In this document: positions 4,973 through 41,894 of the stretch, piece by piece
Numbering within the stretch: position 1 is the stretch's first letter
Layout of the letters: each line of letters starts with the position of its first letter
DNA from: Candidatus Omnitrophota bacterium
Lineage (GTDB): Bacteria > Omnitrophota > Gorgyraeia > Gygaellales > Profunditerraquicolaceae
DNA: 64,000 nucleotides
Direction of reading: 5' to 3'
NCBI GenBank assembly: GCA_041650835.1
Contig: JBAZKL010000001.1
Span: forward strand, 299,931-363,930
Notes under the pieces: model-generated
Told to the model about the DNA's origin: nothing
The model's database searches: none
Seen by the model: only the letters and a program-made list of their open reading frames with translations
Translations under genes and position numbers: made by a program

Positions 4973-5686
4973 ATGTTCATCTTTTTCCGGTTATTATTAG
5001 CGCATTTTCTGGGTGATTTTCCTTTCCAATTCAACATAATCTTCAAATTAAAGACAAGTGGTTTAAAGGGCATCGTCCCCCACGCGCTGATCATTTTTTT
5101 CTGCTCCCTGGCCCTTTCCTGGCCCTACCTGCACTTACCCCAGCTTTGGTTTTTCTTGCTCTTTCTGGCGGCAGCGCACCTGCTGCAAGATTCAATAAAA
5201 CTCCGTTATGGCGCGGCGAAACATTGCTTCTGGGCCTACATCCTGGATCAAATCTCTCATGTAGGAATAATTTCTCTCGTGTTCCTGACCGATCTTAAGC
5301 AGTTAACGCCTCCTGCGGCGGGGCATAACCTTATCATAAGGCTTTACTCCAATGACCAGCTCGTAATCTACCTTATAGCGCTTATCTTTGCCACGTATAA
5401 CGGTTATTTTCTGATCAGATGTTTTAAAGATAATTTTCTCGAAAGAGCAAGCTATAATGCTTTTGAGAAATGGTTTGGTATAGCGGAACGGGCTATAATA
5501 GTCTCTTTTTTCTTTATCCGAAGTTCTTTTTGCTTTTTACTGCCGGTAAGCCTGCTGCTCAGGCCGGCCATCTTTGCCCTCTGCAACAAGAAACTTAAGA
5601 TCCATAAAGATTTCATGACCTTACGGGAACTGATCTTAAGCTGGATCATCGCGGTGGTCTCGGGGTTGATCTTCTCTTTACTTTAA
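4973..5686 (+). CDS. DUF3307-like small membrane protein
   Basis: N-terminus LLLAHFLGDFPFQ resembles the DUF3307 signature, with several TM helices. Only plus-strand gene in the first 45 kb, so its reality is less certain. Confidence 0.4.
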   Translation: MFIFFRLLLAHFLGDFPFQFNIIFKLKTSGLKGIVPHALIIFFCSLALSWPYLHLPQLWFFLLFLAAAHLLQDSIKLRYGAAKHCFWAYILDQISHVGIISLVFLTDLKQLTPPAAGHNLIIRLYSNDQLVIYLIALIFATYNGYFLIRCFKDNFLERASYNAFEKWFGIAERAIIVSFFFIRSSFCFLLPVSLLLRPAIFALCNKKLKIHKDFMTLRELILSWIIAVVSGLIFSLL

Positions 5687-7918
5687 CCCGGTTACCCTGT
5701 ATATGGGGATCGGCATAGATTTACCCTTAACCGTAATAGGGGTCAATTTCTCCGCAATTATTTGTTCTCGGACCAAAGCATATGTGGCATCGCTGATAAT
5801 GATCTCATCCTTATCGGCAGCAGAGCATAACCTGGCCGCCAGATTAACATTATCTCCGATCACGGTATAATCCATACGTTCAGCTGAACCCATATTCCCC
5901 ACAACCATTTCTCCTGTATTTATACCTATGCCTATCTGGAGCGCCGCGGTTTTCTCGCGGAGCCACTTATCCTTAAGTTGATGCATCTTCGCCTGGATTT
6001 CGACCGCCGTACGCACGGCCACTATCGCGTGGTCATTGAGATGGCGGTTACCCGGAGCCCCGAAGAAAGCCATCAATTCATCTCCCACGAACTTATCCAG
6101 CGTGCCGTTATATTTAAAAACCACCTTGACCTGCTGCGTCAATATCTCATTAAGCATGGCAACTACTTCTTCCGGCTGATGCGATTCCGAAAAAGCGGTA
6201 AAACCCCGTATATCCGTAAAGAATACGGTGATCAGCCGCCTTTCTCCTCCAAGCTTTAAGCGCGAAGGATCTTCGATCAATTCACTGATAACTTCATTAG
6301 AAAGATAATGGCTAAAAGCCTGCTTTATCCAAAGCTTCTCTTTTTCTTCGGTAAAGAAACGAAAGCTCGTTATGGCGGAAAATCCGAACACGACAATGCC
6401 CAGCGGCCCCACCAGGTCTATCCAGAGGCCGAAGCGGACAAAAATAAAATAGGAAAAGAAGAAGTATCCGGCCGCGTAACCAAGCGACAATACAAGGCTT
6501 TGCCATAATTTCAGCAAAGAACTGAACCCGATGACTAAAGCGGTGAGTAGGAAAATAAACAGGCGCAAAGCGCCTTCGGCCCTGACAATGAATTTCTCCG
6601 TAAGAATAGTATCGATGAGGTTTGAATGTATGCCGGCCATAGGGTAGTTTTCCTGCAGCGGGATCGGCCGCAGGTCATGCGTGCCGGTCGCGGTCAACCC
6701 GACGATACAGATCTTCCCCTTTACCATCGCGGTGAGCTTCTCTAAAAGCTCCGCTTCGCTTTTCTTAAAATACTCAGCCGCCTCACCGTCAGGCTGAGCT
6801 TTCATCTGCTCTCTTACTTCCTGGAGCCGGAGGATCAAATAATAGGGGACATGTTTAAAAGAAACACCCCATCTGCCCTGCCAGTTCACGAGCATTGCCC
6901 CTTTTTGGTCTACGGGAATGATTATATCCTTAACGGTGCCGTTTAAGCCGGCGCGCTTAAGGATAACACGATCATGCCCGGTTTCTAATTCCTTTACTCC
7001 CAGGAAATCCATGAGCGCGGCGATAGTCAGTTGCGGAAGGATCTTATCCTCATATTTGACAAACAAAGGGATCTTCCTGGTGACCCCGTCAAGGTCGGCG
7101 TCGGCGTTAATAAAACCGCTCCCCCGCATGCTCCGGGTGTACGCCATAATAGGCACGTTTAACATCCTGTATTCTTGACGGAAAGGCCATTGTCCGGCCG
7201 GAAGATCGATACCGAACTGAGCGATAAAAGAACTCAGCAGTTGCTGGGCGGGAAAACGCTGCCTCAAGTAATTTTCATCTTCGGAGAATAAATACCACCC
7301 GTATTCCTCCTCCATGCGCTTTAAAAGGCCGTCAAAGGAGATACCGGGATCTTGACGAATCAACTTTCGCGTAACTTCTTCTAAGACCAGCTTCTTTGCC
7401 TGAGGCAATGTCTCCAGGAGAGGCTCTAAAAGTATATTAAGTTTTTTTGCCGCGTCCGCGGCAGAAAGCGTAATATCCTGTAAAAGCAGGGATTTCAGCT
7501 CATCCGGAACAGCAGCTTGGTTTTCAATGAAATAAAAAGGCAGGTACGTTATACCGCCGCGCGCCATGGAATCGGCGAAAAGCGCGTCATCCTGAGGATT
7601 TTCCTTGAGCTCTTCAGTGAAAATAATATCCATCAGGACCTGCTTTGCCCGGCATTCCTTGAGGATATCGGTAAGTTTAGCGTGGTAATTTCTCGGCCAG
7701 GGCCACCTGCCGACGCCAGCGAGGCTCTGGTCGTCTATATCGATGTGCAGGATCGGCGATCGTGAAGGACGGCTTTCCTTTAAGGCAAACCGCAGATCTA
7801 ATGCTTTTAATTCAAGTATCTGGTAAAACTTTGATCTAAGGGAAAGAGAAATTAACCCTGCCAGGACAATAGAAATACTCAGGCTGACAAATAGTTTAAC
7901 TCGGGTCTTTTTATTCAC
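5678..7918 (-). CDS. CHASE2 sensor domain - class III adenylate/guanylate cyclase
   Basis: N-terminal TM, then about 350 aa periplasmic CHASE2-like region, then 3 TM, then cyclase core (ITVFFTDIRGFTAFSE ... GDELMAFFGAP ... GINTGEMVVGNMGS..RMDYTVIGDNVNLAARL). Confidence 0.85.
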   Translation of the reverse strand: MNKKTRVKLFVSLSISIVLAGLISLSLRSKFYQILELKALDLRFALKESRPSRSPILHIDIDDQSLAGVGRWPWPRNYHAKLTDILKECRAKQVLMDIIFTEELKENPQDDALFADSMARGGITYLPFYFIENQAAVPDELKSLLLQDITLSAADAAKKLNILLEPLLETLPQAKKLVLEEVTRKLIRQDPGISFDGLLKRMEEEYGWYLFSEDENYLRQRFPAQQLLSSFIAQFGIDLPAGQWPFRQEYRMLNVPIMAYTRSMRGSGFINADADLDGVTRKIPLFVKYEDKILPQLTIAALMDFLGVKELETGHDRVILKRAGLNGTVKDIIIPVDQKGAMLVNWQGRWGVSFKHVPYYLILRLQEVREQMKAQPDGEAAEYFKKSEAELLEKLTAMVKGKICIVGLTATGTHDLRPIPLQENYPMAGIHSNLIDTILTEKFIVRAEGALRLFIFLLTALVIGFSSLLKLWQSLVLSLGYAAGYFFFSYFIFVRFGLWIDLVGPLGIVVFGFSAITSFRFFTEEKEKLWIKQAFSHYLSNEVISELIEDPSRLKLGGERRLITVFFTDIRGFTAFSESHQPEEVVAMLNEILTQQVKVVFKYNGTLDKFVGDELMAFFGAPGNRHLNDHAIVAVRTAVEIQAKMHQLKDKWLREKTAALQIGIGINTGEMVVGNMGSAERMDYTVIGDNVNLAARLCSAADKDEIIISDATYALVREQIIAEKLTPITVKGKSMPIPIYRVTGLK

Positions 7919-7930
7919 TAATCTCTTAAC

Positions 7931-8944
7931 TTAGAATCGGTAATACGTTGATATTGAAACCAACGACCCGGAATACTCTTCAACCGGCTCATTGGACTTG
8001 TTCTCCCGGTACGTATAGCTCAGGCCGAACGATATGGATTTATTAAAGCTGTAATATAACGCTGCCGTCGTTAAGAACGTTCTTTCATGCTCTCTGCATC
8101 CGGCGTCGTTTACCAGCGTGCGGCTGCGGTAATCGCGGAATTGCTTGGAAATTGACAGGTAACCGGTGAACTTATCGTTAAACAGATGCGTAAAAGAAGC
8201 GCCGATCTTGTGGGAATCATAATCATAATAATTCAGGAATTTTTCATTGGAGTTGTTGAAGAAATACTGGTAGCCGACTTTGAAAAAATCCTTGGTGAAA
8301 TATTTACCTACCTCATATTCAACCGTGTGGCGTATATCTTCCCTCTTTTTTTCGCTAAAGGTATCGACAGCGGTGCGGATAAGCCGGTCGGCATAATTCC
8401 TGAGCATGAAATTATGCCCCAGGCTCATGTACATTTTATGGGGCAGCTTATATTTAAGCTTCATTCCCACTTGATTATCCAGATAATCGTCATTCCCTGA
8501 ATTTATATATTCAATGCTGTCGAAATCATATTCCGCGGAGAAGCTAAGGTCCCGGGTGAGGTTATGGCTTATGCCGGTCTGGATGCCGTTACGCAGCAGA
8601 TCGAGGTCGCCTTCGCCCGCGTAAAGCAAATTCATTAATTCATAACCAAGGAACGCTTCTGTTTTCTTGGAGACTGAAGTAGTGAACGTGCCCCTGAAAA
8701 AAGTCTGAAAATAAGCATCGCCGTCCCGGGCGCTGTCAAGGTGGCTGTTATTATCGTAACCCTGGGTCGTAGCCAGAAGGAATTTAAATTTTCCGCGTTC
8801 GATGATCGAGCGCTCCGGCTCCAGATAGATCTTTTTATTCCGGGGGGTAACATCTTCCTCGGAAACATCAGCAGCGGCACAAAACAAAGGCGACACCAGC
8901 ACTGCCAAAGCAGACACAAAGAGTATTATTTTCTTCTTTTCCAT
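7931..8944 (-). CDS. Outer-membrane beta-barrel protein (signal peptide, C-terminal aromatic YYRF)
   Basis: Signal peptide MEKKKIILFVSALAVLVSPLFCAA. Alternating hydrophobic/aromatic beta-strand pattern throughout. Terminal Phe typical of BAM substrates. Confidence 0.55.
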   Translation of the reverse strand: MEKKKIILFVSALAVLVSPLFCAAADVSEEDVTPRNKKIYLEPERSIIERGKFKFLLATTQGYDNNSHLDSARDGDAYFQTFFRGTFTTSVSKKTEAFLGYELMNLLYAGEGDLDLLRNGIQTGISHNLTRDLSFSAEYDFDSIEYINSGNDDYLDNQVGMKLKYKLPHKMYMSLGHNFMLRNYADRLIRTAVDTFSEKKREDIRHTVEYEVGKYFTKDFFKVGYQYFFNNSNEKFLNYYDYDSHKIGASFTHLFNDKFTGYLSISKQFRDYRSRTLVNDAGCREHERTFLTTAALYYSFNKSISFGLSYTYRENKSNEPVEEYSGSLVSISTYYRF

Positions 8945-8966
8945 TCTTCCTCCTTAAAGATTTATT

Positions 8967-9812
8967 TTACCACCCATGGCTTTCTTCTTCCCCCGGAGTT
9001 CTTTCCTCGATCAACTTTTCCACATTGCTCTCTTCAACAAGGTCCTTGGCGTCAATAACTTCTTCTATGATCCCTCCCTGATCAAGAGACTGGTCGGTCT
9101 TCTGTTCAAGGTCGGTCTTTGGCGAACTTCCCTCACCTGGGCCTTTGCTCTCAGATTTTTCTTTCACTATGCCCGCGGCATTATCAAGAAGATCGTCCTT
9201 AAGGGTATCAAAACGCTCAAACTCCCTTAAACTCACCTGGACCAAAGCGCCGGGGGTCTCAAACCGTTCGATGATCGTCTTAAATCCTTCAGGAAGCATT
9301 GTTTCAGTGGTCTGCTGCTTGTTAGCGTCAAATGTTTTTATGAATACCGTGTCCTTATAAGCGGAAACCTCATCCGAGTCCCTTTCAGTATATACCCTGT
9401 AACTGGAACCCCTGACACCCGCGACTGCTGAAGGAGTATTCACTTCAAAGCTCAAGCCCGCTTTAATATTCTCTAAATTCGAATAAACCATTCCGCGGGA
9501 AAGGTCCAACCTGTCCAGGGTGCCCTCTGAAGCTGAATTGAGCACTACCTGCGTCTTTTGTTCAAGCCTGATGGTATTTTGCTTCTGTGCGTCAAGGGCT
9601 ATATCAACCCTTGAACGCCTGGCTGTCCTGATCGAATCTCCGATATCGACCTGCATGCCTTTTTCCGCTTTTCTCCAGGTGTCATCCGCGGCTGACTGCA
9701 CCTGCACGCTGCCCTCAAGATAAATTATCTCAGCTGCCCGCGAAAAAGAGACAGCGCCGCCAAGCGTAATACACGCGCTTAGAAAAAGAACAAAGAAATT
9801 ATTTTTTTTCAT
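8967..9812 (-). CDS. FecR-domain periplasmic protein
   Basis: Start reassigned to MKKNNFF (ORF-track start is 60 nt upstream with no RBS logic). Signal peptide, then IIYLEGSVQVQSAADDTWRKAEKGMQVDIGDSIRTARRSRVDIAL, typical of FecR/DUF4974 sensor domains. Confidence 0.6.
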   Translation of the reverse strand: MKKNNFFVLFLSACITLGGAVSFSRAAEIIYLEGSVQVQSAADDTWRKAEKGMQVDIGDSIRTARRSRVDIALDAQKQNTIRLEQKTQVVLNSASEGTLDRLDLSRGMVYSNLENIKAGLSFEVNTPSAVAGVRGSSYRVYTERDSDEVSAYKDTVFIKTFDANKQQTTETMLPEGFKTIIERFETPGALVQVSLREFERFDTLKDDLLDNAAGIVKEKSESKGPGEGSSPKTDLEQKTDQSLDQGGIIEEVIDAKDLVEESNVEKLIEERTPGEEESHGW

Positions 9813-9883
9813 AACTATCTCCCTTTTTTTACGCTTACGCCTTTTATATGTTCCATACGGACCCTCCGGCAATTAAACCGGCA

Positions 9884-11668
9884 TTAAAAAGATTTGGTAA
9901 CCGACCACCACACATGATGATTATCCCCGTCCACGCCGTTTTGATGAGTAAGCGGCCAGCCCGCGTCCAGGCGCACTGAAAAACCCTGGTCAGGCACGGT
10001 ATAGGTAAACCCGAACCCAACAGATGCGAGCGTAGTAACTTTCTTATCGTCAGGCTCTCCCGGGACAATAGATACCTTAGGGTTTTTAATGACCCCTTGC
10101 GCCCAATCCCAGAAGGTAAACAATTTTAAGGCATTATTCAATTTTGTCTTGGTAGAAAACGGCGCGTTCATGTCTTTAGGAATAAAATACGGAGGGAAAG
10201 AAAAACCCAGCGTTATCGCCCTGCCGCCATCCGCCGGCAACTGGGTCCGCGGATACCCCCTGTTATCGATCACGCCGCAATAACCTCCTATGCTGAACGC
10301 GTTCACTCCGGTGAGCGTAGCTGAAGAAACCTGCCAGCGGGCCTTACTGATAAAATCAATGCCGGCAAATAATGATTGCCGCCTTGCTACCGTCAAGAGA
10401 TTCTTGACATAATTGCCTTTGGCGCCCGCGACAGAGGCGTCATCTGATTTTATGGTCGCTCCATTAAGAAAATTAGGGATCGCCATTTGAAGGTCGTTCG
10501 TGATCACCCAGCGGCCGTAATTATCGGCCCGATTGAGCGACAGATCCCACTTAAGGACACGGAACTCATCCTTCCTGGTAGGATTATTATATTTCTCATA
10601 CGGCTTATACCACCAGATATCAAAATAGGTAAAACCATAGCTCGAAACAAACTCCAGGTCAGGCTTATTGATCAAATACTGATAAAACCAGAAATAGAAT
10701 TTTCTCGCCCGTTTCTCAAAATCAGTGGTCTCATTATCCTTATAATAATAATCCTCTGATTTATACGGCAGGAGATAAAACTGGAATTTCCATTTATTAT
10801 TAAGCGGTATACTATAATCCAGGTCGAATATCTTATGGGCATCGCCTTCAGCCCACTCGATCTTGGCAGTCAGGCTATCGTCATGGCCGGTGATATTATT
10901 ATGGATAAGAAAAGTTTTGTAGCGGTTATAGAGGATGGTCTCAGCGCCGTAGTTATCCGCCTGCAGGGTGGCATGCAGCGGAGATTTATCTTTTACCGTC
11001 AAGGTGACGTCTGCTGTGCCTGTGCTCTTATCCAGGTCGATCTGAATAGCCAGCTTTCTATCAGGATGCCTATTCATCCTGTAAACATCCAGATTAAGCG
11101 CGATAAAGTTGAACGGCTGTCCTTCCTTTAAGGTTATTTTTTTCATCAACAGATCCGTCGAGAAATTCTTATTACCTTGAATATTGATCTTGCCGGTCCT
11201 GCCTTCTACTGCCATAATTTCCAGGATACCCTCAGCGAGCTTATCGGGAATAATGTAGGCATAAGAGGTAATGTAGCCTTCGCGGCTGTAAGCGCGGTTG
11301 ATCAAATCCGCGCAGCGCTGCATTTGCCTGGCGGTCAAGTCCCTGTGTTCGTAATCTCTTTTGAGTTTATCGATAGCTTCCTGGGCCAGGAGGGTTGAAC
11401 CTTTGACGACAACTTCTTCTATACGCGTTGTCCCCTGGGGCAGCGTCGGCTTTGGTATAAGCGCCGCTACCTGCTGCTTAATTATTAAAACCGGGGCTTT
11501 CTCCCGTTTCTGCACAATTTCCTGCTCAATTAACTGGGCATGAGGGTCATCATCGCCGGCCCCCTCGTCAAAAGCGATCGCCCGGGAATCATTAAACAGG
11601 AATAAAAACGCGACAACAAAAACCACGGCAAATCCAATAAACTTCCTTTGCCATTTTAGGCTATTCAT
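9884..11668 (-). CDS. ShlB/FhaC/HecB-family (TpsB-type, POTRA + 16-strand barrel) outer-membrane transporter; no cognate TpsA adjacent
   Basis: Start moved to MNSLKWQ (ATG 11668..11666 preceded by AGGAGG). POTRA region IEEVVVKGSTLL...INRAYSREGYITSYAYIIPDKLAEGILEIMAVEGRTGKINIQGN is strongly ShlB-like. C-terminal barrel ends in F. Confidence 0.8.
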   Translation of the reverse strand: MNSLKWQRKFIGFAVVFVVAFLFLFNDSRAIAFDEGAGDDDPHAQLIEQEIVQKREKAPVLIIKQQVAALIPKPTLPQGTTRIEEVVVKGSTLLAQEAIDKLKRDYEHRDLTARQMQRCADLINRAYSREGYITSYAYIIPDKLAEGILEIMAVEGRTGKINIQGNKNFSTDLLMKKITLKEGQPFNFIALNLDVYRMNRHPDRKLAIQIDLDKSTGTADVTLTVKDKSPLHATLQADNYGAETILYNRYKTFLIHNNITGHDDSLTAKIEWAEGDAHKIFDLDYSIPLNNKWKFQFYLLPYKSEDYYYKDNETTDFEKRARKFYFWFYQYLINKPDLEFVSSYGFTYFDIWWYKPYEKYNNPTRKDEFRVLKWDLSLNRADNYGRWVITNDLQMAIPNFLNGATIKSDDASVAGAKGNYVKNLLTVARRQSLFAGIDFISKARWQVSSATLTGVNAFSIGGYCGVIDNRGYPRTQLPADGGRAITLGFSFPPYFIPKDMNAPFSTKTKLNNALKLFTFWDWAQGVIKNPKVSIVPGEPDDKKVTTLASVGFGFTYTVPDQGFSVRLDAGWPLTHQNGVDGDNHHVWWSVTKSF

Positions 11669-11699
11669 ATGCAGATCCTCCTTTTGCAGAATGCAAAAC

Positions 11700-11885
11700 A
11701 CGCCGCAGAAAGCGGCGTACTTGCCTATCCAATTAAGGCAAGTGCCGACGCAATACCGATCTGCGTCGGGTGTAAAACGCAAACGGTACACCCGCGCAAT
11801 ACCGTCGCAGAAAACGGCGTACCCAGCCACACCAGTAAGGCTGGGCGCGATGAGCGCGGGGTGTATTCGCTAAAAAAACGCCCGA
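11700..11885. repeat. GC-rich multi-hairpin repeat element, copy A (REP/BIME-like or structured RNA), upstream of the TpsB-FecR-OMP-CHASE2 cluster
   Basis: Units cgccgc-AGAAA-gcggcg-GTAC and cgtcgc-AGAAAAC-ggcg-GTACCCAGCC, plus hairpins cccagcc...ggctggg and cttgcc-tatccaattaa-ggcaag. Homologous to 55383-55566. Confidence 0.6.
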
Positions 11886-11950
11886 GTTTATCGACTATTA
11901 ATATAAAACATCTTAAAGGACACATCCCCCTTTGTCAAGGGAACAATTAG

Positions 11951-12847
11951 CTAACTTAACTCATTTATCAAAACGCCTTGATTCTCAAGAGGCACGGTAT
12001 AATACTGCAGGATATCATCACCGCTAAACCATTGATTATCCGGCCCTGCTCCTATAAATTTTTTTGTCTTAAGCAGCCGTCCGAGATCATCGTACAAGAG
12101 TTCCTTTGTCGCGTAAACGGCATCATCGGCGCTAAACCACGCTTCATCCTCACCCCGGCCGTTATGCTGAGCATGGTACTCACGGACCCGCAGCAGCTTA
12201 CCCTGGCCATCAAATTCGCTTTTGTGGTATTTCTCGACCTGGTCGTCAGGGCTGAACCATTTGTTGTCCGCGCCGCGGCCTGCGTACTCCACGTCTTTTA
12301 CCATGCGTCCTTGCGTATCGTATTCATAGGCCGTGTAGTATATTATTTCCTTCGCGTTGTTATACCGCACGTCCCTGGACTTATTGCCGCGGGCATCATA
12401 CTCATAGGCAACGCGATACTTCTGCCGGGAGTCCTTACCGTAAACAACCTCCCCGTCGGCTTTTTGCCGCGAATTATATACATACACCTGGTATTCCTGT
12501 AACGCGTCGTCGGGAGTAAAGATAAGGCTGTCCGTACCTGTCGTATAACATAATTTCTTCAGCATCCTCCCCTTTTTATCGCGCTCTGTCAGGAAATAAT
12601 GATAAACCTCATCGTCTGCGGTGAACCATTGTTTATCCGCTCCCGCGACATATTTTATTTCTTTTTCCTCGTATATATCATTTCCTTGCTTGCCGGAAGT
12701 TTTTCCAATTATTTCGGCTGCCCCCGTCTTCTCCAGAGAAAACCGCTCTTCATCAGTATCACGGAATTGAGCATACAAATACAGGGGATTAAAAAAGAAC
12801 CCTGAAGAAAAAAAGCATAAGCATAAAAACAATATTTTCTGTTTCAT
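11951..12847 (-). CDS. Secreted repeat protein with five W-F-[ST]-x-D-D motifs; unknown family
   Basis: Signal peptide MKQKILFLCLCFFSSGFFF. Repeated DKQWFTADDEVYHY / DNKWFSPDDQVEKY / DEAWFSADDAVYAT / DNQWFSGDDILQYY at about 50-aa spacing. Confidence 0.5.
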   Translation of the reverse strand: MKQKILFLCLCFFSSGFFFNPLYLYAQFRDTDEERFSLEKTGAAEIIGKTSGKQGNDIYEEKEIKYVAGADKQWFTADDEVYHYFLTERDKKGRMLKKLCYTTGTDSLIFTPDDALQEYQVYVYNSRQKADGEVVYGKDSRQKYRVAYEYDARGNKSRDVRYNNAKEIIYYTAYEYDTQGRMVKDVEYAGRGADNKWFSPDDQVEKYHKSEFDGQGKLLRVREYHAQHNGRGEDEAWFSADDAVYATKELLYDDLGRLLKTKKFIGAGPDNQWFSGDDILQYYTVPLENQGVLINELS

Positions 12848-12852
12848 GGGCC

Positions 12853-13929
12853 CTATTTCTGCGCTGCGCTGAAAGCAGGCTTTGTAATCTTAGTTGCCGC
12901 AGTTTTGACTATGCGAAACCCCGTCATTGCCCGGCTCATATCGCGGTAATCAAATCCCCGGTAGCTGTTATTAAACGCGTCTTGATCCGCTACAAAAGCG
13001 ACCTCAAAAGGCGGCCCCATCCCTTTACGGAAATTCGGGTCAGATATATAACATCCGCCGCGAACTGAGCGTAAAGGCTGGAATTGCTTAAAGAACGGCA
13101 GGTATATATACAGGCTGGGAGGCGGGCCTACGGGATCAATTTGCTTCTCGCTGCCGCTGTATTCGTTATACCAGTCATTACACCATTCGGCAAGATTTCC
13201 TGCCATATCGCTTAAACCCAATTTACTGTCTCCTTTGGGAGAATATGCCCCGACAGCAGCCGGACCGGATGTATAACTATTGACATTGGCATATGAGGCA
13301 TCTGCGTCCTGGTTACCCCAGGGATATTTCCTGCCGTCATTATATTGCGCCGCGTATTCCCATTCCGCTTCAGTAGGCAGACGGTAACCTGTCTTTCCAT
13401 ACACCTGGCAGGACCAGTCATCAAGATCGTAAAGCGGGGACAATCCCTCCTGCTCACCAAGCACATTACAGTAAAACGCCGCCCCATACCAGGTCAGCTC
13501 CAAAACCGGCAGGTTTTCTTTACCCGCGGCCGCAGAAAATTTACCGTCCTGATAGACTATCTGCGAATCTTCATCCGCCAGGTCCTGATATTTCTGCGCT
13601 GACTTGGATACGCCGTAGGCCTGTCTTCTTTTGGCCTCCGGCGCTAAATAATTCATATCCAGATAGCCTTTACTTAAGGCGTAATTAAGCATATCAGCGT
13701 ATTGCTGATTGGTTACCTCGTGTTTACCCATATAAAGATCATTAGTCAATACCACTTCATGCGCGGGCTTCGCGTTACTGAACGCTTCGTTACCCATTTG
13801 AAAAACACCCGCCGGGACCAGGACCAGTTCAGGTTTACCGGCCTCACTCTCGGAAAAAGCATGTTTGAAAAAAAATCCTGACCCCACGCATAAAATAACC
13901 GCCAGAAAAACGTATCTTTTCTTCATCAA
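12853..13929 (-). CDS. Formylglycine-generating-enzyme (FGE/SUMF1) family domain protein, secreted
   Basis: Signal peptide. LVLVPAGVFQMGNE, HEVVLTNDLYMGKHEVTNQQYADML, YRLPTEAEWEYAAQ, GNLAEWCNDW, VRGGCY and GFRIV are the FGE-sulfatase motifs. Confidence 0.75.
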   Translation of the reverse strand: MMKKRYVFLAVILCVGSGFFFKHAFSESEAGKPELVLVPAGVFQMGNEAFSNAKPAHEVVLTNDLYMGKHEVTNQQYADMLNYALSKGYLDMNYLAPEAKRRQAYGVSKSAQKYQDLADEDSQIVYQDGKFSAAAGKENLPVLELTWYGAAFYCNVLGEQEGLSPLYDLDDWSCQVYGKTGYRLPTEAEWEYAAQYNDGRKYPWGNQDADASYANVNSYTSGPAAVGAYSPKGDSKLGLSDMAGNLAEWCNDWYNEYSGSEKQIDPVGPPPSLYIYLPFFKQFQPLRSVRGGCYISDPNFRKGMGPPFEVAFVADQDAFNNSYRGFDYRDMSRAMTGFRIVKTAATKITKPAFSAAQK

Positions 13930-13955
13930 AGGCCTCTTCCTGTTATTTAACCGGT

Positions 13956-15563
13956 TTAGAACCCTAACCTGCAGCCGCTATTCTTGCCATCTTCGCTCTT
14001 GGGGAAATTTGCCGCGAAACGCAACGCAAAACGTAGATATTTAAAAGCCGGGCTTGACCAGACCCCGCCTCTATTTCCCGCGCCGGCCCCGTCCTTACCC
14101 GGCCAGCTGGATGTGTTCGCGAAACCTTCCGCGTCCAGCTCTCCGTCTCCGTGCCTGCCGTCATAAACGCGGCCGAGTTTATGGCCTACGGTTACGCATC
14201 TTTCCCAGAGGTTACCGCTTAAGTTACGCGCTCCGTAATAGGAAGCGCCGTCATTTATCTTCTCGAGTATACCTTCATGCCTGCTATTTTCAAAGACCTC
14301 TCCGCTTACCGGCCCCTCAAACCCCGGGTTATCGGGAACTGTTTTCTTTCCTACATCAAAGGGAGCTATTCCTCCTCCAAAACAAGCATTCACGAGCCCT
14401 TTTTGAGGGACCTTTTTTTCAAAACCGCTTCCGTCAGCGCCATCAAAGGTCTCGACCCTGCCTGCTTCGGTAGTGCCCCAGGCGCCCTCATCAACAACAG
14501 GATCTTTTGGGCCGCGGCATGCCTTTTCATATTCAAGTTCGGTAATAGGCCGTAACCCTGCCCAATCGCCGATCGCGGCGATATTCGACCAGGACATGAA
14601 ATTTACCGCGCGCGCAGGGGCATAGGTGTAAAAAATGACCGGTTCAGTTGTCCCATTGCCGCGTTTCGCGGTAACGATCGCGTTACGCAGATGTTCCTCT
14701 TCGCTATTTGTCTTAACATAATAATTCTTTATTCCATCCGCGCTTATATCCGACTCGACCATGCTCTGCTGCTGCTTCCTGTTCAAAGTATTTAAGAAAT
14801 CCACGAATTGTTGGGAAGTTAATTCATACTTCATAACCCAGAACGCCTTATAGCCTTTGGGGAATTCCTGAGGAATGGTAAAGGGAACATCCTCGCGGCT
14901 GCGGGGATTATCCTGGTCACAGTATAATGCTCCGTCAACTTTATCCACGGTGATCGGATCTTCAGAAGCGATCAAATAAGCGCCATTATCAGGAAAGGCG
15001 TAAAAAGCATTATCCGGGCCGGCCGGGCCTTTTGGATCTCCCACGTAATGCTTATCCTGCGGAACATAGACCATTTCAATGCCAAAAACTTTTACCCGGG
15101 CTTTCAAGGCCGTCTCATCGCTGACGCCATCCTGAGCATAATCCCAGATAAACCCGACATTCTTGGAAACAAGGTTCCCGCTCCCTTTAGTTTTATAAAT
15201 AAAAAATCCTTTTTTCTCTTCGGGCACCCACATTCCCGCATCCGCATTCTCGCCCTTTGAGAATAACTCAGGGGTATGGTCCGCGTAATCAAAAGCAGTG
15301 ACGCTGGAGGCCTTCAATGAAACATGCTGCCACGCGCCGCCGGGAGCCTGAAATTTAGCGAAGACCCAAACCCCGTCGCAATTAGTATCGTTCTTCCAGG
15401 CATTATCCCAGGAAACATTACATTGGACCTTGGCTGTTTTTTTCTTGGTATTAACTTCGCTGATACGCGCATTCTCGATCTTTAAATGGCTGGCAAAAAC
15501 ATTATTATAAGAAAACATGATCATTAATCCCGCCAGCAAAGAACCAAAAAACTTACTTCTCAT
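13956..15563 (-). CDS. FGE/SUMF1-family domain protein with about 170-aa N-terminal extra domain, secreted
   Basis: Signal peptide. FWVMKYELTSQQFVDFLN, LRPITELEYEKACRG, GNLWERCV, RGGVWSS, CRLGF. Confidence 0.65.
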   Translation of the reverse strand: MRSKFFGSLLAGLMIMFSYNNVFASHLKIENARISEVNTKKKTAKVQCNVSWDNAWKNDTNCDGVWVFAKFQAPGGAWQHVSLKASSVTAFDYADHTPELFSKGENADAGMWVPEEKKGFFIYKTKGSGNLVSKNVGFIWDYAQDGVSDETALKARVKVFGIEMVYVPQDKHYVGDPKGPAGPDNAFYAFPDNGAYLIASEDPITVDKVDGALYCDQDNPRSREDVPFTIPQEFPKGYKAFWVMKYELTSQQFVDFLNTLNRKQQQSMVESDISADGIKNYYVKTNSEEEHLRNAIVTAKRGNGTTEPVIFYTYAPARAVNFMSWSNIAAIGDWAGLRPITELEYEKACRGPKDPVVDEGAWGTTEAGRVETFDGADGSGFEKKVPQKGLVNACFGGGIAPFDVGKKTVPDNPGFEGPVSGEVFENSRHEGILEKINDGASYYGARNLSGNLWERCVTVGHKLGRVYDGRHGDGELDAEGFANTSSWPGKDGAGAGNRGGVWSSPAFKYLRFALRFAANFPKSEDGKNSGCRLGF

Positions 15564-15578
15564 ATATTCCTCCTCTTT

Positions 15579-17006
15579 TTAATGCATGTGGCCTTTAACA
15601 GAAGCGTATTGATTAAAACCTCCCTTACGCGCGGTTTTTACAGCGCTGACCAGCCCGGCAAATGTCGCGATCAACAGTCCCAGGGCGAGAAAATTGAACT
15701 GCCCGCGGAAAACATCCTTCCCGGGGAAGGAAGAAGCAATTTTCAAGATCACCGGGGAAAGGAATTGCCCCAGGTAGATACCCACGCTTACTACAGCCAT
15801 GGCAAATGCCCGGGAAGTTTCAGGAGTGATCCTGGCCGCGCGCAGCAATAAAAGCGGCATTAAGATGCCGGAGCTAAAACCGATACAGAGCATTGAGAAT
15901 AAAACCCCGGCTAAAGACGACACCGAGCCCAAAACAGCGTATCCGGCCGCCATAGCCGCGATGCCTATAACAGAACAATAAGGGCCAAACCAACGCAAGA
16001 GCATAGCCAGAATGATCCCGGATAACACTCCCACCAGTGTCATCGCGGAAAGGAAATATCCCGCGATCCCCGGCCTGCCTAAGCGCTCCGCGGAAACGAT
16101 CAATCTATCATCTTGTTTAAGCACTATATATTTCTTATTCTTATCGGTAATACTCCAGCGCTTGCCCTGCTCTTCCGCGGCAAATACCGCGTTTTCCGAA
16201 AGAATGATCCCGTTATTCTTAAAAGACTCTCTGGTAACCTGAGAAATGATCCCCTTCTCTAAATAAGCCTCTAACTCCGCCTTATCCTTAAATAACGGCG
16301 TAACGCTTGTATACATCTGCCGTTCATTTTCTATGAACATTGCCAGATTTGTAGGCGCGGCGTAAAAAGCGACCATCATCAGGGCGCCCAAAACAGCGCA
16401 GAGATATACCCCGCCGGGAAGCTTGGATTTTACTAAACCGGCGGTTTTCTTAACTTCAGGTTCAGGCAGCCAGAAGAAAACCGTGAACATGATCAAGACT
16501 GATAATCCGTATACGCCAAAGGCATAGCGCCAGTTCATGCATGCCAGCCATCCGGAAAGCAAGAGGAATACCACCCCGCCGAAATGGGATACAGAACCGG
16601 AAAGCCCCATCATCTTAGCGCGTTCTTCCTTTTCGTAAAAGTCAGCGATCAAGCTGATGGAAAGCGGAATGATCAAACCGACGCCGATCCCGAAAATACC
16701 GCGGATGATCAATAACTGGGTTATGGTTTGCGCAAATCCTCCGCCTATGCCTCCCAGGAAATAAATAAAAAGGCCGATCAAAAGGATGTTCTTTTTCTTC
16801 GTCCGGGAAGCAAGCCATCCCCCGAGCAGGCTGAAAGGGATGATCAATAACGAAGGCAGCGTCAAGACCAGCTTTATCAAAGTTATATCCGTGTCAGGGA
16901 ATGCCTGGCGTATCTTGGCTAATGCCGGAGAAATCGCCGCGGACGCCATAACCGTCAAAAGAGATATTGAAAGGATACTTATTTTTACCAGAAGATTATT
17001 CATCAA
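15579..17006 (-). CDS. MFS transporter with about 100-aa cytoplasmic insertion between the two six-helix halves
   Basis: 12 TM pattern. Insertion ENERQMYTSV...VSAERLGRPGIAGYF is hydrophilic. Conserved MFS motif-A-like GxLaDRxGrkk region (LGGWLASRTKKK). Confidence 0.7.
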   Translation of the reverse strand: MMNNLLVKISILSISLLTVMASAAISPALAKIRQAFPDTDITLIKLVLTLPSLLIIPFSLLGGWLASRTKKKNILLIGLFIYFLGGIGGGFAQTITQLLIIRGIFGIGVGLIIPLSISLIADFYEKEERAKMMGLSGSVSHFGGVVFLLLSGWLACMNWRYAFGVYGLSVLIMFTVFFWLPEPEVKKTAGLVKSKLPGGVYLCAVLGALMMVAFYAAPTNLAMFIENERQMYTSVTPLFKDKAELEAYLEKGIISQVTRESFKNNGIILSENAVFAAEEQGKRWSITDKNKKYIVLKQDDRLIVSAERLGRPGIAGYFLSAMTLVGVLSGIILAMLLRWFGPYCSVIGIAAMAAGYAVLGSVSSLAGVLFSMLCIGFSSGILMPLLLLRAARITPETSRAFAMAVVSVGIYLGQFLSPVILKIASSFPGKDVFRGQFNFLALGLLIATFAGLVSAVKTARKGGFNQYASVKGHMH

Positions 17007-17596
17007 TTCCCGCCTTCCAGAGCATAGGCAAGCGCCTCGCCGAAATCCCCCGCCGAACCGGGCCCGTCAGCGGTAATTATTTTACCGTCTTTCTCGACAG
17101 GTTGAGCGGTATAATCGACTCCGGCGGACTTAAGCTTATCCGCTTCGCTCGGATATACGGTTGCTTTTTTGCCTTTTAAGATGCCGGCATTGGTCAATAT
17201 TACCGGAGCCAGGCAAATGCCGCCGACGATCTTATTTTGCGCGACTCCATCTTGCGCTAATTTATGGGCAACAGGGTCATCGAGGTACTGCGCTGCCCCC
17301 GGACCGCCGATAAATACTATCGCGTCGAAATCTTCTGCCGCAACATCCTTAAGCAGCATATCAGGCTTTGCCTTCATGCCGCCGGTCCCGGTAGCTTCTT
17401 GGAGCTTTGTTGAAGCAACCGTTACAGAAATGCCGCGGGCTTTAAGCGCTTCCAGGGGCTTGGCAAATTCATCGTCTTGAAAATTCTCCTGGGCAATGAT
17501 GAAGACCGCTTTTTTAGTGCCTTGAGCATAGCTCAAGTTAAGATAAAATACAACCGGCACAATGAAAGCAATTATTATACTCAAGATCTTTTTCAT
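17003..17596 (-). CDS. DJ-1/PfpI family protein, secreted (signal peptide)
   Basis: Nucleophile-elbow IVGGICLAPVIL with Cys. Overall PfpI layout. N-terminal MKKILSIIIAFIVPVVFYLNLSYAQG signal. Confidence 0.7.
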   Translation of the reverse strand: MKKILSIIIAFIVPVVFYLNLSYAQGTKKAVFIIAQENFQDDEFAKPLEALKARGISVTVASTKLQEATGTGGMKAKPDMLLKDVAAEDFDAIVFIGGPGAAQYLDDPVAHKLAQDGVAQNKIVGGICLAPVILTNAGILKGKKATVYPSEADKLKSAGVDYTAQPVEKDGKIITADGPGSAGDFGEALAYALEGGN

Positions 17597-17641
17597 TTCT
17601 TGTCCCTTTCTTTAACATGTCATTGCGGACACGATAAAAAA

Positions 17642-32227: not shown

Positions 32228-35200
32228 TTATTTACTTTTGAGTTTCTCGTCAAAGTCCTGAAAGAACTGCAGCAGGCTGTCATGGCCGACGAGCTTGAGC
32301 TGGCCGCCGGTAAGCTCGTAGGCATCCGCGCCGACCGAGAATTGGTCAAAAGCTCCCATATCCGACTCGGTAAGCGGATGATAGAAGAAAACTGAACCTA
32401 TGGGCGAGTTGAATTGGAACATCGCCAGGTCAGAAGCGTCTAAGCTCACAGGTTCATACGAGATAATACTGCCGACAGGAGCTTGCGAGACCGATTCAGG
32501 TTCCGGGACAGGCTCTGGTTCTGGTTCCGGCTCAGGTTCAGGCTGCTCTGAGGGAATATTATTAAAATAAACTATGCCGGGAGCGCTCAACACGTTAATA
32601 ACATCAGGAGTAGTCTCTCCCCGGATGATTCCGGTAAACGCCGCGCTGACTCCGTCAATTAGACCGTATGATACCAAATTTAAATTGCCAACACCTGTGA
32701 TCAACACATCCAACGGGATATCCAATGATCCGATCATGGATGTGGAATAAACTATCTGATAATCCGGATATTCGCCTATACGTGAATATGTGCCGTCATA
32801 GATATATACATCCCCTGAAGAAGTAATATGCGGGCCTTCAATAGCGCCTGCTATGATCGCGCCCCCTGCAGAGATATAAAGCCCTGAACTTAGCCCGCTG
32901 ATAGCCGCGTTCAGGAATATATCCCGGGCAGCATCGAGAACTTCCACATTGCCGTATACCTGTCCGCTTTGCGGATATTGCACAAAAATGCTTCCGGCAG
33001 TAGAGCGCACGCGTATCGCGTTCAAGCCGTCATCATCGCTTAAGAGGCTCGCGCTGAAATCAGGTTCCTCGGAATTTCCGCAAAGCAGGTTTTCACCTGC
33101 AAAAGTGAAGTTGCTTGCTGACTGGAATGAGAAATATTCAGAAGTCAAGTTAACGGCCTGTGCGCTGTAAAGATTCCCCGCGCCATTATCGTTATTATCC
33201 GCATGTAATTGTATCGTGCCTGCCTCGAGATCGCAGTTCAGATACAGATCCCCCGCAGAATGCAGGTAAATATAATCATCTCTGGGCTGCAGTTCGTTAA
33301 CGGTAAGCGTCTCTTCCAATGTTGAATAGATCGCGATAGATGACGGAGAAGATTCTCCATACGGCGCATAGAGTTCCAGCGTAGTCCCATCATCGTTAAG
33401 CGACAGATAGAACGAACCGTCAGCGCCTTCAGTCACGACAAAATCATTTGCCCCCTGAAAAGAATGGCTAAAAGCTACCAGCTCAAGATATTCGGCTTCA
33501 AAGATCAGCTCGCCTATAACATCATCGTCGTCATAATCAGCATACAAGCCGATCGTATTGCCCATAAGGTTATTATTCAGCGTCAGGTCTGCGCCCGCGC
33601 GCAGGATCATGTCGCCGAAGATCTCGGAAGTGCCTTCCGCGTTTTGGGCGATCGCCTCAGAACGCACCGGGAATTCAAGCCCTTCGACATCGATCTCGAT
33701 ATCGCCGATGGCATAAACGCTCAAAGCGCCGGCTTGCGCTGTTGCGGTTAAGGAAGGAGCAACCGCGCCAAGTCCTATCGCCTGCGCCATAGAATACACC
33801 TGCGACTCACTCAGTACGCTAAAATTAGCGCCGGTCGTGATCTCCAAAGGCCCGCTTGAAGCAACAGCTGTATCGACCCCGTAAGCATACGCTGTGGAAT
33901 TCAATCCGGATACTAAATCCAGGATAAAATTACCAAATGCAGAGACTATAATTTCACCAGAGGTGGCAATAGCTGAATTGCTGGCAGGCACATCGCCCCC
34001 AACCGTCGAGGTTCCGGCGCTGGCTTGCGTATAAACATGGCCGCTGTTAAAAATGATCGAAGCATTCGTGAACAACCCCATATCCCCTGAAACAGACGTA
34101 GCGATAGCGCCGCCCTGCGCGGTAGCTGAAGAATATACCGAAGACTCATCCGTTAATTGAATGCCGCTGCCTTCACCACGGTCGCCGCCCGCATCCAAAA
34201 CCACCACACCGCTTTGCGCATCCACATTACCGTCACCCCAGGAAAGCGCGTTAGCAGAGGAATAAACACTGCTCTGATCATCCCCCGAATTGGCCACTAA
34301 GATCCCCCACGCCAGGATCCCCGCGTCGCCTGAACGCGCCGCCGCATCTCCGGAAGACTCCGCTGTTGCCGAAGAATAGACGTGGCCGTCGATAAAAAGG
34401 CTTGCGTATTCGGCGAAAAGCGTCACATCGCCGGAATCAGCGTCAGCTGAAAGGTACCCATCGGCCTGGGCGCTGGAATAAAATGATGCTCCATCAAAAC
34501 TGATCCAACCGTCAAAAGAAGTAACATCGACATCGCCGGATTGAGCATCCCCCAGGCCATACGCATCAGCCACTGCAGACGTATACGCTGATGTTTGGTT
34601 AGAAAAAACGATTTCGTTCTCTGCCGTAATGATAATATTGCCTGATCCAGCAGTGCAATTACTGGCGTTTGAGGCATCGGCACGGCTGTTGGGAGAAACG
34701 TTGTTAAAACTAATAGCGTCTCCTGCGATCAGGCTTACGCTGCCGGAATATGCGCTTGCGCTATTGCCTTCTCCTGTATCCGCTTCAGCCAGGGAAGAAA
34801 TAAACCCTTCACTAAGGGTAATAGATCCTAATAAACTTTCAAGATTCACGTCATCTGACTGCGCCCACGCCGTGTCAGAGGACTCCGCGGTAGCCCAGGA
34901 AGTAAAAGAAACCGTTGCGTCATATTGCGGATCACCTGCTGCTTCAATACCATTATAGCCTAAGACACTGACATATCCCGCGTACGCGAGCGCTTCCTGC
35001 GCATCTCCTTCAAAGGCATATGCCTGGGCACGGCTGTTCAAGTCAGGGAAGCCGATCAAACGGAACAATCCAAGACAAGTAACATCAATGTTTCCCGTCC
35101 TGGCATAAGCATATTCATACGCGCTTGCCGTAGCATTAGACTGAACAGGAGTATCGATCAGATCCATATTCCCGCTGCTATATAAGGTAACATCACCGGC

Positions 35201-40184: not shown

Positions 40185-41894
40185 TTAAAATTCTTTGGAA
40201 ACCTGGACCCAGGGATGAAAGCGGTCGCCGTCAGAAGGTGTCTTTTTAACAGACCAGGCAAAATCAGCCCTTATGGAGAAGTTTTCCGGAAGATTAAAAC
40301 GGATCCCCCACCCAAGGCTGCGCAAAGTGCTGTTTTTTCTTTCCCCTGGCTGAGGCTGGCGCAGATTAACATAACCCCAGTCATAAAATGCCACTAACTT
40401 TAAAGCATCGTAGAATTTTGCCTTTGAGAAAGGCACCAAAATATCCTTGGGTAAAAAGTATGGCGGGATCAGCCATTCCCAAGATGACGATATCCCCCGG
40501 TCTCCCACATATTCTCCGGAAGGATACCCCCTTACATTAGATATACCGCCCAACTGAAACTGTTGGGATGCCGTCAGGGTGTAGGGAGATGTTTGAGCCT
40601 GGCTCTTCCACAAAAGCATCGAGGATAACGGCATATTCTGAAGACGGATAAGATTTAAGCTATACTTGATAAATTTTCCGCCGGAGCCGACCCTTGAGGC
40701 GCGGCTGTCTTTTTCTTCCAATCCACCCATAAAATCAGCTAAACCAAGGCCTATTTCCGGAGAAATAATGGTCCTTCCTCCCCTTGCCCAAGAATCAGAA
40801 GCATCAAGGTCAGCTCCCAGTTTAACCACACGCAGACGGTCACGGCTCTGTTCATCGCCGAGTTGGAAATTAAAAGAATCCAGATAATCAAACCCGGCGT
40901 TCAAGGTAACGGCGTAATCATCCTTTTTGATCAAATCATGGATCGCGAAAATGCTGTAATTACGGCTCTTGCCTCTGGCCTCCAGGCTTTTGAATTCCCT
41001 GCCCAATTCCAGCGCTGATTTTGAGATGGAAAATCCCAGTTTAGTCCTGGAGGAAACAGGCAAAAGATAGCGCAAAGCGATCAACGTGTAATCCTGGCCG
41101 TCAGAGGTCTGATACTGCAGGGAAACAATATCATCGAATCCGAAAATATTGTTATGGCTGAGCACTCCCGTATAACGGTTCTTATCCACATAGCGGGAAG
41201 CGTAATTGTCATAATCTAACCGCAGATGTAACGGCAGGTTATCGGTAACTTCAAGGACAATATCAGTGGCACCCGCTTCCTTGCCGGGCGCGAGCACAGC
41301 CTTGACATTCCTGTCAGGATGCTCATTAAGTTTGGAAAGGTTTCTTCTGAGTTCTTTATAATCAAAATGCTCTCCTTTTTGAAGACGGATCGCCTTCCTG
41401 AGTACGGAAGTGCGGAAAAAACGGTTCCCCTTTATTTCCACGTCACCGATCACTCCTTCAACTGCCATGATCTCCATGACCTCATTTTGTATCTTTTGCG
41501 GAGGCAGATAGGCGCGGGAAGTCACATACCCTCTTTTACGATAGGCGTCAGTAATAAGGTCGACCACTTTTTGCATCTCCTCGAGCCCTATTTCTTTATT
41601 CTCAAAAGGCGAGATTATGCCCTGGATCTCCTGTTCAGGAATAAGCGTGACCCCTGTTACGTTGATCTTCTTGATCAAAACCTTCTCTCCGGCAGCAAGA
41701 GGGGCCCTGATCTCCGGCGGCGGCTCTTCTATCACCGGCTCTTCTTTCTTTTCTTCGATCCTCTCCCGCAGGAGTTTTTCTTCTTCAAGCTGGCGCTGTT
41801 CCTGCTGGAATTTCTCCACTTCCTGAGCCAGGGTTAAAGCAGGAAAAAGAAAAACAATACATATACCGATAAGAATTCTTTTTAATCTATCCAT
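40185..41894 (-). CDS. TpsB (ShlB/FhaC/HecB-family) outer-membrane transporter, cognate partner of the downstream TpsA
   Basis: Signal peptide, coiled-coil/Pro-rich spacer, POTRA (ITDAYRKRGYVTSRAYLPPQKIQNEVMEIMAVEGVIGDVEIKGNRFF) and C-terminal barrel ending ...VQVSKEF. 115 nt upstream of TpsA. Confidence 0.85.
   Translation of the reverse strand: MDRLKRILIGICIVFLFPALTLAQEVEKFQQEQRQLEEEKLLRERIEEKKEEPVIEEPPPEIRAPLAAGEKVLIKKINVTGVTLIPEQEIQGIISPFENKEIGLEEMQKVVDLITDAYRKRGYVTSRAYLPPQKIQNEVMEIMAVEGVIGDVEIKGNRFFRTSVLRKAIRLQKGEHFDYKELRRNLSKLNEHPDRNVKAVLAPGKEAGATDIVLEVTDNLPLHLRLDYDNYASRYVDKNRYTGVLSHNNIFGFDDIVSLQYQTSDGQDYTLIALRYLLPVSSRTKLGFSISKSALELGREFKSLEARGKSRNYSIFAIHDLIKKDDYAVTLNAGFDYLDSFNFQLGDEQSRDRLRVVKLGADLDASDSWARGGRTIISPEIGLGLADFMGGLEEKDSRASRVGSGGKFIKYSLNLIRLQNMPLSSMLLWKSQAQTSPYTLTASQQFQLGGISNVRGYPSGEYVGDRGISSSWEWLIPPYFLPKDILVPFSKAKFYDALKLVAFYDWGYVNLRQPQPGERKNSTLRSLGWGIRFNLPENFSIRADFAWSVKKTPSDGDRFHPWVQVSKEF

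Follow-up and report, generated by a model that had tools for sequence, protein, structure and literature searches.

Four co-directional genes on the minus strand of a 64,000-nt stretch of Candidatus Omnitrophota DNA (contig JBAZKL010000001.1, positions 299,931 to 363,930; hereafter the window) encode, in reading order, a TpsB/ShlB-type Omp85 transporter of 594 amino acids (aa; 11668-9884), a secreted FecR-domain protein (281 aa, 9812-8967), a 14-stranded outer-membrane beta-barrel (337 aa, 8944-7931) and a CHASE2 receptor adenylate cyclase (746 aa, 7918-5678). With a probability of about 0.5, we read them as one operon for an outer-membrane-to-cyclic AMP (cAMP) signalling device of the NsrA/CyaK kind, accompanied by a dedicated Omp85-family helper. 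The new element is the coupling of a TpsB to the FecR/barrel/CHASE2 set. An original prediction, made from the letters of the window, had already named these four genes; their families and coordinates were confirmed by a check of the open reading frames (ORFs) and by Pfam, including the hidden Markov models (HMMs) ShlB, FecR, CHASE2 and Guanylate_cyc. The gene order on which that prediction leaned proved to be conserved: it recurs unchanged in 15 species-representative genomes, with two more loci cut by contig ends, and the arrangement is therefore more than chance.

The intergenic gaps are indeed as tight as first described, although the values of 72, 23 and 13 nt were each one too high, and the TpsB-FecR, FecR-barrel and barrel-cyclase gaps measure 71, 22 and 12 nt, respectively. 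Ribosome-binding sites stand before the TpsB ATG at 11668 (AAGGAGG), the FecR start at 9812 (GGGAG) and the barrel start at 8944 (AAGGAGG), while the cyclase starts with GTG behind a weak site; together with homologue lengths, which for TpsB are 589-596 aa, they back the proposed start codons. A candidate sigma-70-like promoter, TTGACA-17-TAAGAT (11910-11938, minus strand; 10/12 consensus matches), was found upstream of TpsB and nowhere else in the operon, the consensus scan overall showing no enrichment over shuffled sequences. The promoter block TTGTTCCCTTGACAAA...TAAGATGTTTTATATTAATAG is near-invariant across the window and loci L007 and L008, and the leader after it is variable. This 5' leader (11669-11909, minus strand, ~240 nt), recognised from sequence and alignment, contains several GC-rich hairpins; its last ~100 nt are conserved, and a terminator-like stem, CGCCGC-TTTCT-GCGGCG followed by TGTTTTG, lies just 5' of the TpsB ribosome-binding site. 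In the window, the leader has a specific insertion of ~80 nt, and its conserved 3' part contains two hairpins, the second of which resembles an intrinsic terminator. Such a structured leader could act as an attenuator, a candidate function suggested by its sequence. It had no match in Rfam at E<=1, and a riboswitch or other known RNA was rejected.

The transporter is predicted to be a genuine and probably active TpsB, because CdiB and FhaC rank above BamA and TamA among its structural relatives and both Omp85 motifs are kept. Pfam located POTRA_2 at residues 82-156 (6.2e-14), POTRA at 159-226 (1.6e-9) and ShlB (6e-9; 36 bits at a cutoff of 22.7), and the sequence matches in the PDB were CdiB (2e-12) and FhaC. 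The AlphaFold2 (AF2) model, with a predicted local distance difference test (pLDDT) of 80.6, shows an N-terminal helix, two POTRA domains built as beta-alpha-alpha-beta-beta modules at 81-227 and a barrel of 16 strands between 231 and 593; a signal peptide is also present. The N-terminal helices are predicted at 42-53 (pLDDT below 50) and 59-70, and the alignment with CdiB begins at residue 47. In Foldseek, the best match of the model was CdiB 6wim (9.4e-29, TM 0.68/0.74), with CdiB 6wil and FhaC 4ql0/4qky also above BamA and TamA. By the definition followed here (PMC4490367), the TpsB signature combines the L6 tip (V/I)RG(Y/F) with the inner-wall motif (F/G)xDxG. The window protein has N469-R470-G471-Y472 at the tip and D480-G481-G482 in the wall, and residues D468, R470, G471, R474, D480 and G482 do not vary among 29 homologues. 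The retention of two POTRA domains, 16 strands, the L6 NRGY and xDxG, with CdiB and FhaC as the closest folds, speaks against the original view that the cluster senses "rather than" secretes; judged from sequence and model, the transporter has most likely retained a role in protein translocation or insertion.

As had been noted at the outset, no TpsA adjoins this transporter. The two-partner secretion (TPS) domain (PF05860) was absent among the neighbour proteins scanned with Pfam, and the sole TPS-domain protein of the window (32228-40069; TPS 7.2e-34) lies 20 kb away and is paired with its own TpsB (40185-41894; ShlB 84 bits). In a neighbour-joining tree without support values, the TpsA-less TpsBs formed one clade apart from the TpsA-linked ones, with which the classical TpsB 40185-41894 of the window grouped. 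In the same tree, the FecR/CHASE2 context belonged to a large subclade of these orphan TpsBs and to their deepest branch, L034.

The last gene encodes a protein with Pfam matches to CHASE2 (2.1e-47) and Guanylate_cyc (1.3e-28). A hydropathy scan resolved it into a first transmembrane (TM) segment (5-29), a periplasmic CHASE2 domain (~30-445), three TM segments (~443-519) and a class IIIb catalytic domain (556-745). The closest solved cyclase domain is that of Pseudomonas aeruginosa CyaB (PA3217; PDB 3r5g, 2.6e-45), in comparison with which the catalytic set is complete: the metal-binding Asp residues D569 and D613, together with K609, T685, N692 and R696. In the nomenclature of class III cyclases, an adenine-specifying Lys with Thr in place of Asp denotes a class IIIb adenylate cyclase. 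Because of the Lys609/Thr685 specificity pair, the predicted product is cAMP; the likeness to CyaB points the same way, and the cGMP that had been offered as a second possible product is dropped. The CHASE2 domain is long, with ~415 aa compared to ~280 aa in CyaK, and its Pfam match spans 440 residues on a 257-position model, which points to sizeable insertions, helical for the most part, at which partner proteins could dock.

The FecR-domain protein (Pfam FecR 8.5e-11) begins with a type I signal peptide, whose AA↓E cleavage site is conserved among orthologues and which leads straight into the FecR domain. By its sequence, it is not a FecR anti-sigma factor, because the cytoplasmic anti-sigma domain and the TM segment are both absent. 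The window protein also has an LSAC lipobox-like motif, but Cys14 is not conserved in 17 orthologues, as opposed to the AA↓E site, and a lipoprotein was rejected. The core of 178 aa has a mean identity of 62%, and the tail of ~77 aa has 29% identity and a median net charge of -12. NCBIfam places the protein nearest to the Leptospira lipoprotein LipL45 and the adhesins Lsa33/Lsa19. An exhaustive phmmer search with it returned 3608 representatives, mostly stand-alone proteins of ~270 aa. Close relatives are also found as the N-terminal part of large proteins that are secreted or of a surface type, in combination with Peptidase_S8 (42% identity), with CARDB/DUF11 or with a beta-propeller, DUF11 and SdrD_B. 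This pattern fits a module that would be carried to, or retained at, the outer membrane. In three such proteins (P0243, P0263 and P0331), the position of the N-terminal FecR module is like that of a TPS or retention domain.

The small barrel was modelled with 14 strands (AF2 pLDDT 85.9), and its best Foldseek matches were CymA, OmpG and FadL. The Pfam families above cutoff were BBP2_2 (7.2e-8) and MtrB_PioB (4.9e-6). It has a signal peptide and ends in YYRF, a typical beta-signal, and by sequence search the family is confined to Omnitrophota. SlipAM scored 19.7 bits, under the cutoff of 22; the 14-strand count fits Slam, a TPR is lacking, and two homologues have a precomputed PF04575 match.

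A scan with the TpsB alignment of one genome per GTDB species gave 34 loci, which were compared by tblastn with the window proteins. Across the four-gene loci, TpsB identity ranges from 95% to 52% and falls to 34% in L034, where the four-gene order is still kept. The TpsB-FecR gaps in 14 other genomes are 23-93 nt, always on the same strand. Only L017 and L018 keep the four genes with upstream synteny lost. In L129 (TpsB 44% identical), the locus is rearranged and contains two TpsBs, a K-channel, another protein, a TPR protein, a tandem-FecR protein and a CHASE2 cyclase; its 598-aa protein, considered as a FecR-barrel Rosetta-stone fusion, turned out to be the tandem FecR, with a C-terminus that has no similarity to the barrel. 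A comparison of protein searches suggests at least 10 further contigs with both TpsB and cyclase, L129 being the one confirmed.

FecR beside CHASE2 also recurs in more distant contexts. Of seven further CHASE2 cyclase contexts (52-25% identity), L041, L043 and L046 have FecR, and L043 and L045 have an Alginate_exp-type outer-membrane barrel; L043 reads FecR, a 150-aa protein, the Alginate_exp barrel and the cyclase. In 80 metagenomic CHASE2 loci, a sample biased to one CHASE2 type by the narrow query alignment, FecR was the commonest family in the two upstream ORFs (9/123 ORFs). L091 (6819-12118) contains a TPR + barrel protein, FecR and a CHASE2 cyclase, and L115 (6204-11839) a TPR + SlipAM barrel (31 bits), a FecR protein ending in TbpB_B_D and a CHASE2 cyclase; in L108 (166-4084), a FecR-TbpB_B_D protein precedes the CHASE2 gene. 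In these lineages, the FecR partner of the CHASE2 sensor thus resembles a cargo protein that is served by an outer-membrane translocator of its own. A cargo survey of the type XI secretion system (T11SS; PMC12282271) makes no mention of CHASE2, FecR or cyclases, and FecR-TbpB_B_D next to CHASE2 looks like a hitherto undescribed class of T11SS cargo.

In the mechanism we propose, the FecR protein and the 14-strand barrel would form an outer-membrane receptor, and the FecR domain would relay a surface-bound signal to CHASE2 in the periplasm; CHASE2 would then turn on cAMP synthesis. The TpsB would not be a sensor; it would deliver or anchor the FecR protein at or across the outer membrane or, less likely, insert the barrel. 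It would thereby do for FecR what the Slam/T11SS barrel appears to do for FecR-TbpBBD and what the barrel fusion does in NsrA. FecR is proposed as the cargo because its gene lies directly downstream, as in tpsB-tpsA pairs. For the single parts of this scheme, the membership of the TpsB in the FecR + barrel + cyclase module comes close to an even chance without reaching it, and the identification of the FecR protein as TpsB cargo is tentative and rather unlikely to be correct. Of the envelope input to the CHASE2 cyclase originally suggested, the part played by FecR, barrel and cyclase stands as the best reading, with the NsrA precedent that had gone uncited, and a sensing role of the ShlB-like barrel within it is improbable.

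Several observations weigh against this reading. What would link TpsB and cyclase functionally is their gene context, and synteny in this lineage is long-range: a ~17-kb block (TPP enzyme, Lcl_C, DJ-1, MFS, two FGE, RHS-like, TpsB, FecR, barrel, cyclase and DUF3307) is syntenic in most of these genomes, with conservation higher still in the flanking housekeeping-type genes than in the four-gene set itself. Because the whole region is syntenic, adjacency is weak evidence of function and may reflect shared ancestry instead. The TpsB coupling is not general and represents a lineage-specific addition, since no TpsB occurred in the seven distant contexts or in the 80 metagenomic loci, where ShlB and POTRA_2 were absent from both neighbour censuses and the single match of the TpsB HMM was a six-POTRA BamA. 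The FecR-CHASE2 modules of other lineages would accordingly work without TpsB. Likewise, the sister subclade of orphan TpsBs (L002, L022-L026, L028, L030, L032) has no FecR-like protein nearby, so that FecR is not the universal cargo of the orphan-TpsB clade. The FecR protein itself has no TPS domain in Pfam, and its family profile found no relative in the PDB at E<=1. With hhalign, the window barrel family and the NsrA C-terminus showed no detectable homology (probability 0.1), nor was there any among the window, NsrA and L043 Alginate_exp barrels (0.1-0.2); homology of the three was rejected, and the shared feature is architecture only. Moreover, the RHS-like protein encoded upstream is a possible alternative partner of the TpsB, being equally adjacent to it in L025 and L032.

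The RHS-like protein (298 aa, 11951-12847, minus strand) is a secreted YD/RHS-like repeat protein, recognised by its signal peptide and repeats with weak RHS_repeat/YD_repeat matches. If the TpsB were unrelated to the cAMP module and served another cargo, this protein would be the most plausible one, and the adjacency of TpsB and FecR would be a matter of synteny. We regard this as unlikely, if deserving of attention. Its gene lies directly upstream of orphan TpsBs in many loci, including L025 (18-nt gap) and L032 (4-nt overlap), which have neither FecR nor CHASE2, and the long-range synteny, the FecR-less sister subclade and the TpsB-less CHASE2-FecR modules elsewhere all agree with such an arrangement. 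However, in the window, L007 and L008 the conserved promoter-like box lies between the RHS-like gene and TpsB, as does a K-channel gene in the latter two; L017, L018 and L034 keep the order TpsB-(Ion_trans_2)-FecR-barrel-cyclase without any RHS-like gene; and TpsB and FecR invariably share a strand, with only a short gap between them.

Two further explanations keep the TpsB in the operon and give it another task. In one, the ShlB-like barrel has lost transport and itself receives or relays the signal, its POTRA domains docking FecR in the periplasm, which would make the operon a sensor only. The lack of a TpsA or TPS domain near the TpsB would suit this, as would the weak ShlB score (36 bits compared to 84 for the classical TpsB of the window), and NsrA demonstrates that a barrel can be the receptor for CHASE2 cyclases (PMC7529298); it is nevertheless quite improbable, given that the Omp85 functional motifs (L6 RGY tip, xDxG wall) are kept across 29 homologues, that the model has its nearest folds in CdiB and FhaC, both active transporters, and that a separate 14-strand barrel is already available in the operon as receptor. 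The other would make the TpsB-like protein a dedicated Omp85-type insertase for the 14-strand barrel, akin to TamA or a BamA paralogue, and not a translocator of FecR. Omp85 members do insert beta-barrels, BamA and TamA were also strong Foldseek matches, the C-terminal YYRF of the window barrel is a typical beta-signal, and in L032 the orphan TpsB is directly followed by a small barrel-like protein, as judged by eye (beta-rich, ending in RHF). Against it stand the TpsB architecture, since two POTRA_2-type domains with an N-terminal helix are linked to translocation rather than insertion (PMC4104836), and L129 and L027, which keep TpsB and FecR without a recognisable copy of the barrel; we hold this explanation to be very improbable.

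Downstream of the cyclase, a DUF3307 membrane protein (Pfam) is encoded on the plus strand (4973-5686), its gene overlapping the cyclase 3' end convergently by 9 nt. This convergent gene follows the four-gene set wherever the contig reaches that far, thus in every complete four-gene locus, and was treated as a conserved companion. DUF3307 also occurs near distant TpsB-less CHASE2 cyclases, in L041 and L045 by Pfam and in L046 by tblastn only, where FecR is sometimes absent too. The cyclase of L041 (1011-11890; 52% identical by tblastn) belongs to a separate cluster without TpsB, composed of FecR, two small cNMP-binding proteins flanking the cyclase (one on each side), a Metallophos protein (a possible phosphodiesterase), another protein, a TP_0789-like (LolA-like) protein, an MMPL transporter with a cNMP-binding domain and an RCK K+ channel. 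In the window itself, a protein encoded 16 kb away (24207-25754, minus strand) combines RsbW-like HATPase_c_2, cNMP-binding and SpoIIE phosphatase domains; it could be a cAMP receptor and possibly a partner-switching regulator controlled by cyclic nucleotides.

Upstream of the operon, the window has lost, at 11940-11960, a gene of ~700 nt that is present in L007 (640-1350) and L008 (9050-9760) and encodes a small protein resembling a K+ channel (Ion_trans_2, filter TTVGFGD). In these closest relatives, the gene is located after the RHS-like gene and before the TpsB promoter; in the window, the deletion has fused the 3' end of the RHS-like gene to what were the final codons of the channel gene (...INELS*). 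Elsewhere, orphan TpsBs have an Ion_trans_2 channel gene directly beside them more often than any other gene, and such a channel also adjoins those of the sister subclade. Other neighbours in that subclade (L002, L026, L028, L022-L024, L032) are a periplasmic coiled-coil protein rich in E/K/A, with a signal peptide and a C-terminus that by eye recalls the LTxxQ motif of Spy/CpxP; an adhesin-like protein of 1785 aa that carries CarboxypepD_reg, DUF11 and SdrD_B domains; or a small barrel-like protein. They may be further non-TPS cargo. The block further upstream (window 11951-22055; L008-L021), which most relatives keep, includes two FGE-sulfatase-domain proteins that, beside secreted repeat proteins, may form a unit of their own. 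Several near-identical or related contigs, those of L007, L010, L011 and L029, are labelled Planctomycetales, Victivallaceae or Aenigmatarchaeota; they are probably Omnitrophota DNA that was misbinned or wrongly classified.

CHASE2 domains are widespread in cyclases, kinases and diguanylate cyclases. To our knowledge, the one experimental lead on what they sense, and how, comes from Sinorhizobium, where NsrA is genetically required. Parts of the NsrA type recur as separate genes beside CHASE2 cyclases in unrelated lineages, some with a secretion device (a TpsB or a Slam-like barrel). Taken together, these cases yield a testable model of a surface-placed FecR co-receptor that hands its signal to CHASE2. 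It is conceivable, albeit improbable, that CHASE2 receptors in general read such a co-receptor and do not bind signals directly, its placement being achieved by barrel fusion (NsrA), by Slam/T11SS with TbpBBD (L115, L108) or by a TpsA-less TpsB (Omnitrophota). The comparison also brought to light a clade of TpsBs without a TPS-domain partner. If the FecR protein is their cargo here, the FecR domain would be a new, non-TPS class of type Vb cargo; if orphan TpsBs export FecR-type or other non-TPS proteins, the rule for type Vb cargo would widen. The claim that a coupling of CHASE2 to a ShlB-type protein had not been described held up, as no paper was found that combines CHASE2 with TpsB, ShlB, FhaC or two-partner secretion, and no TpsB occurred in the 87 other CHASE2 contexts. 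Cyanobacterial CHASE2 genes may neighbour ShlB-type genes, which would lower the novelty if true; the literature on CHASE2 with DUF928, CHAT or hemagglutinin contained nothing relevant, and searches of plasmids gave no cyanobacterial CHASE2.

Among known systems, that of Sinorhizobium meliloti is the nearest in plan. There, the outer-membrane protein NsrA is needed for the CHASE2 cyclases CyaK and CyaD1/D2 to perceive an extracellular protein signal (PMC7529298, PMC13001267). The nsrA gene is annotated on pSymB directly upstream of cyaK with a 1-nt overlap, and its product (1200 aa) consists of FecR (85-179), TPR (436-550) and a C-terminal barrel (~600 aa). Both systems provide a CHASE2 class III cyclase with a FecR domain and an outer-membrane barrel encoded directly upstream. 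What is a single fusion in NsrA corresponds in the window to separate FecR (281 aa) and barrel (337 aa) proteins; the TPR is absent in the window, although a TPR protein is found in the related locus L129, and the TpsB gene that heads the window set has no counterpart in Sinorhizobium. By analogy, the FecR, barrel and cyclase of the window are quite probably a split, TPR-less version of the NsrA-CyaK kind, and this trio as such is not new. In agreement with the original prediction, FecR-CHASE2 neighbourhoods have been described elsewhere, in a CHASE2 adenylate cyclase cluster of Campylobacterota (PMC9239204) and in the Burkholderia BiofilmReg operon of LysM-FecR and a CHASE2 histidine kinase (PMC5192318). 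As in the window, the FecR protein there adjoins the CHASE2 sensor, and both are read as one signalling pathway; unlike the window, those sets contain a phosphodiesterase and a TPR protein, or a response regulator, a histidine kinase and DUF4136, and neither has a TpsB.

Of the secretion systems, the classical TPS pairs (FhaC/FhaB, CdiB/CdiA, ShlB/ShlA) share with the window the architecture and motifs of the transporter and the gene of a Sec-exported protein directly after it; in the window, however, that protein is small and lacks a TPS domain, and the transporter belongs to the separate TpsA-less clade. Slam/T11SS (PMC8406197, PMC12282271) likewise has a 14-strand barrel encoded beside its cargo, whereas the window barrel stays below the SlipAM cutoff and has no TPR, and the window FecR is without TbpB_B_D. 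In FecIRA signalling, a FecR-family periplasmic domain also ties outer-membrane events to a cytoplasmic response, but the window FecR has neither the cytoplasmic anti-sigma domain nor the TM segment; sigma70_r2/r4 and TonB-receptor had no match among the window ORFs scanned. The PUMA3 (VreAIR) system of P. aeruginosa encodes a FecR-type regulator in the neighbourhood of TPS genes under its control (PMC2729926). In contrast to the window, its TPS pair, TpsA included, is a transcriptional target and not a part of the sensor. The likeness to P. aeruginosa CyaB, with its Lys/Thr class IIIb signature, concerns the catalytic domain only.

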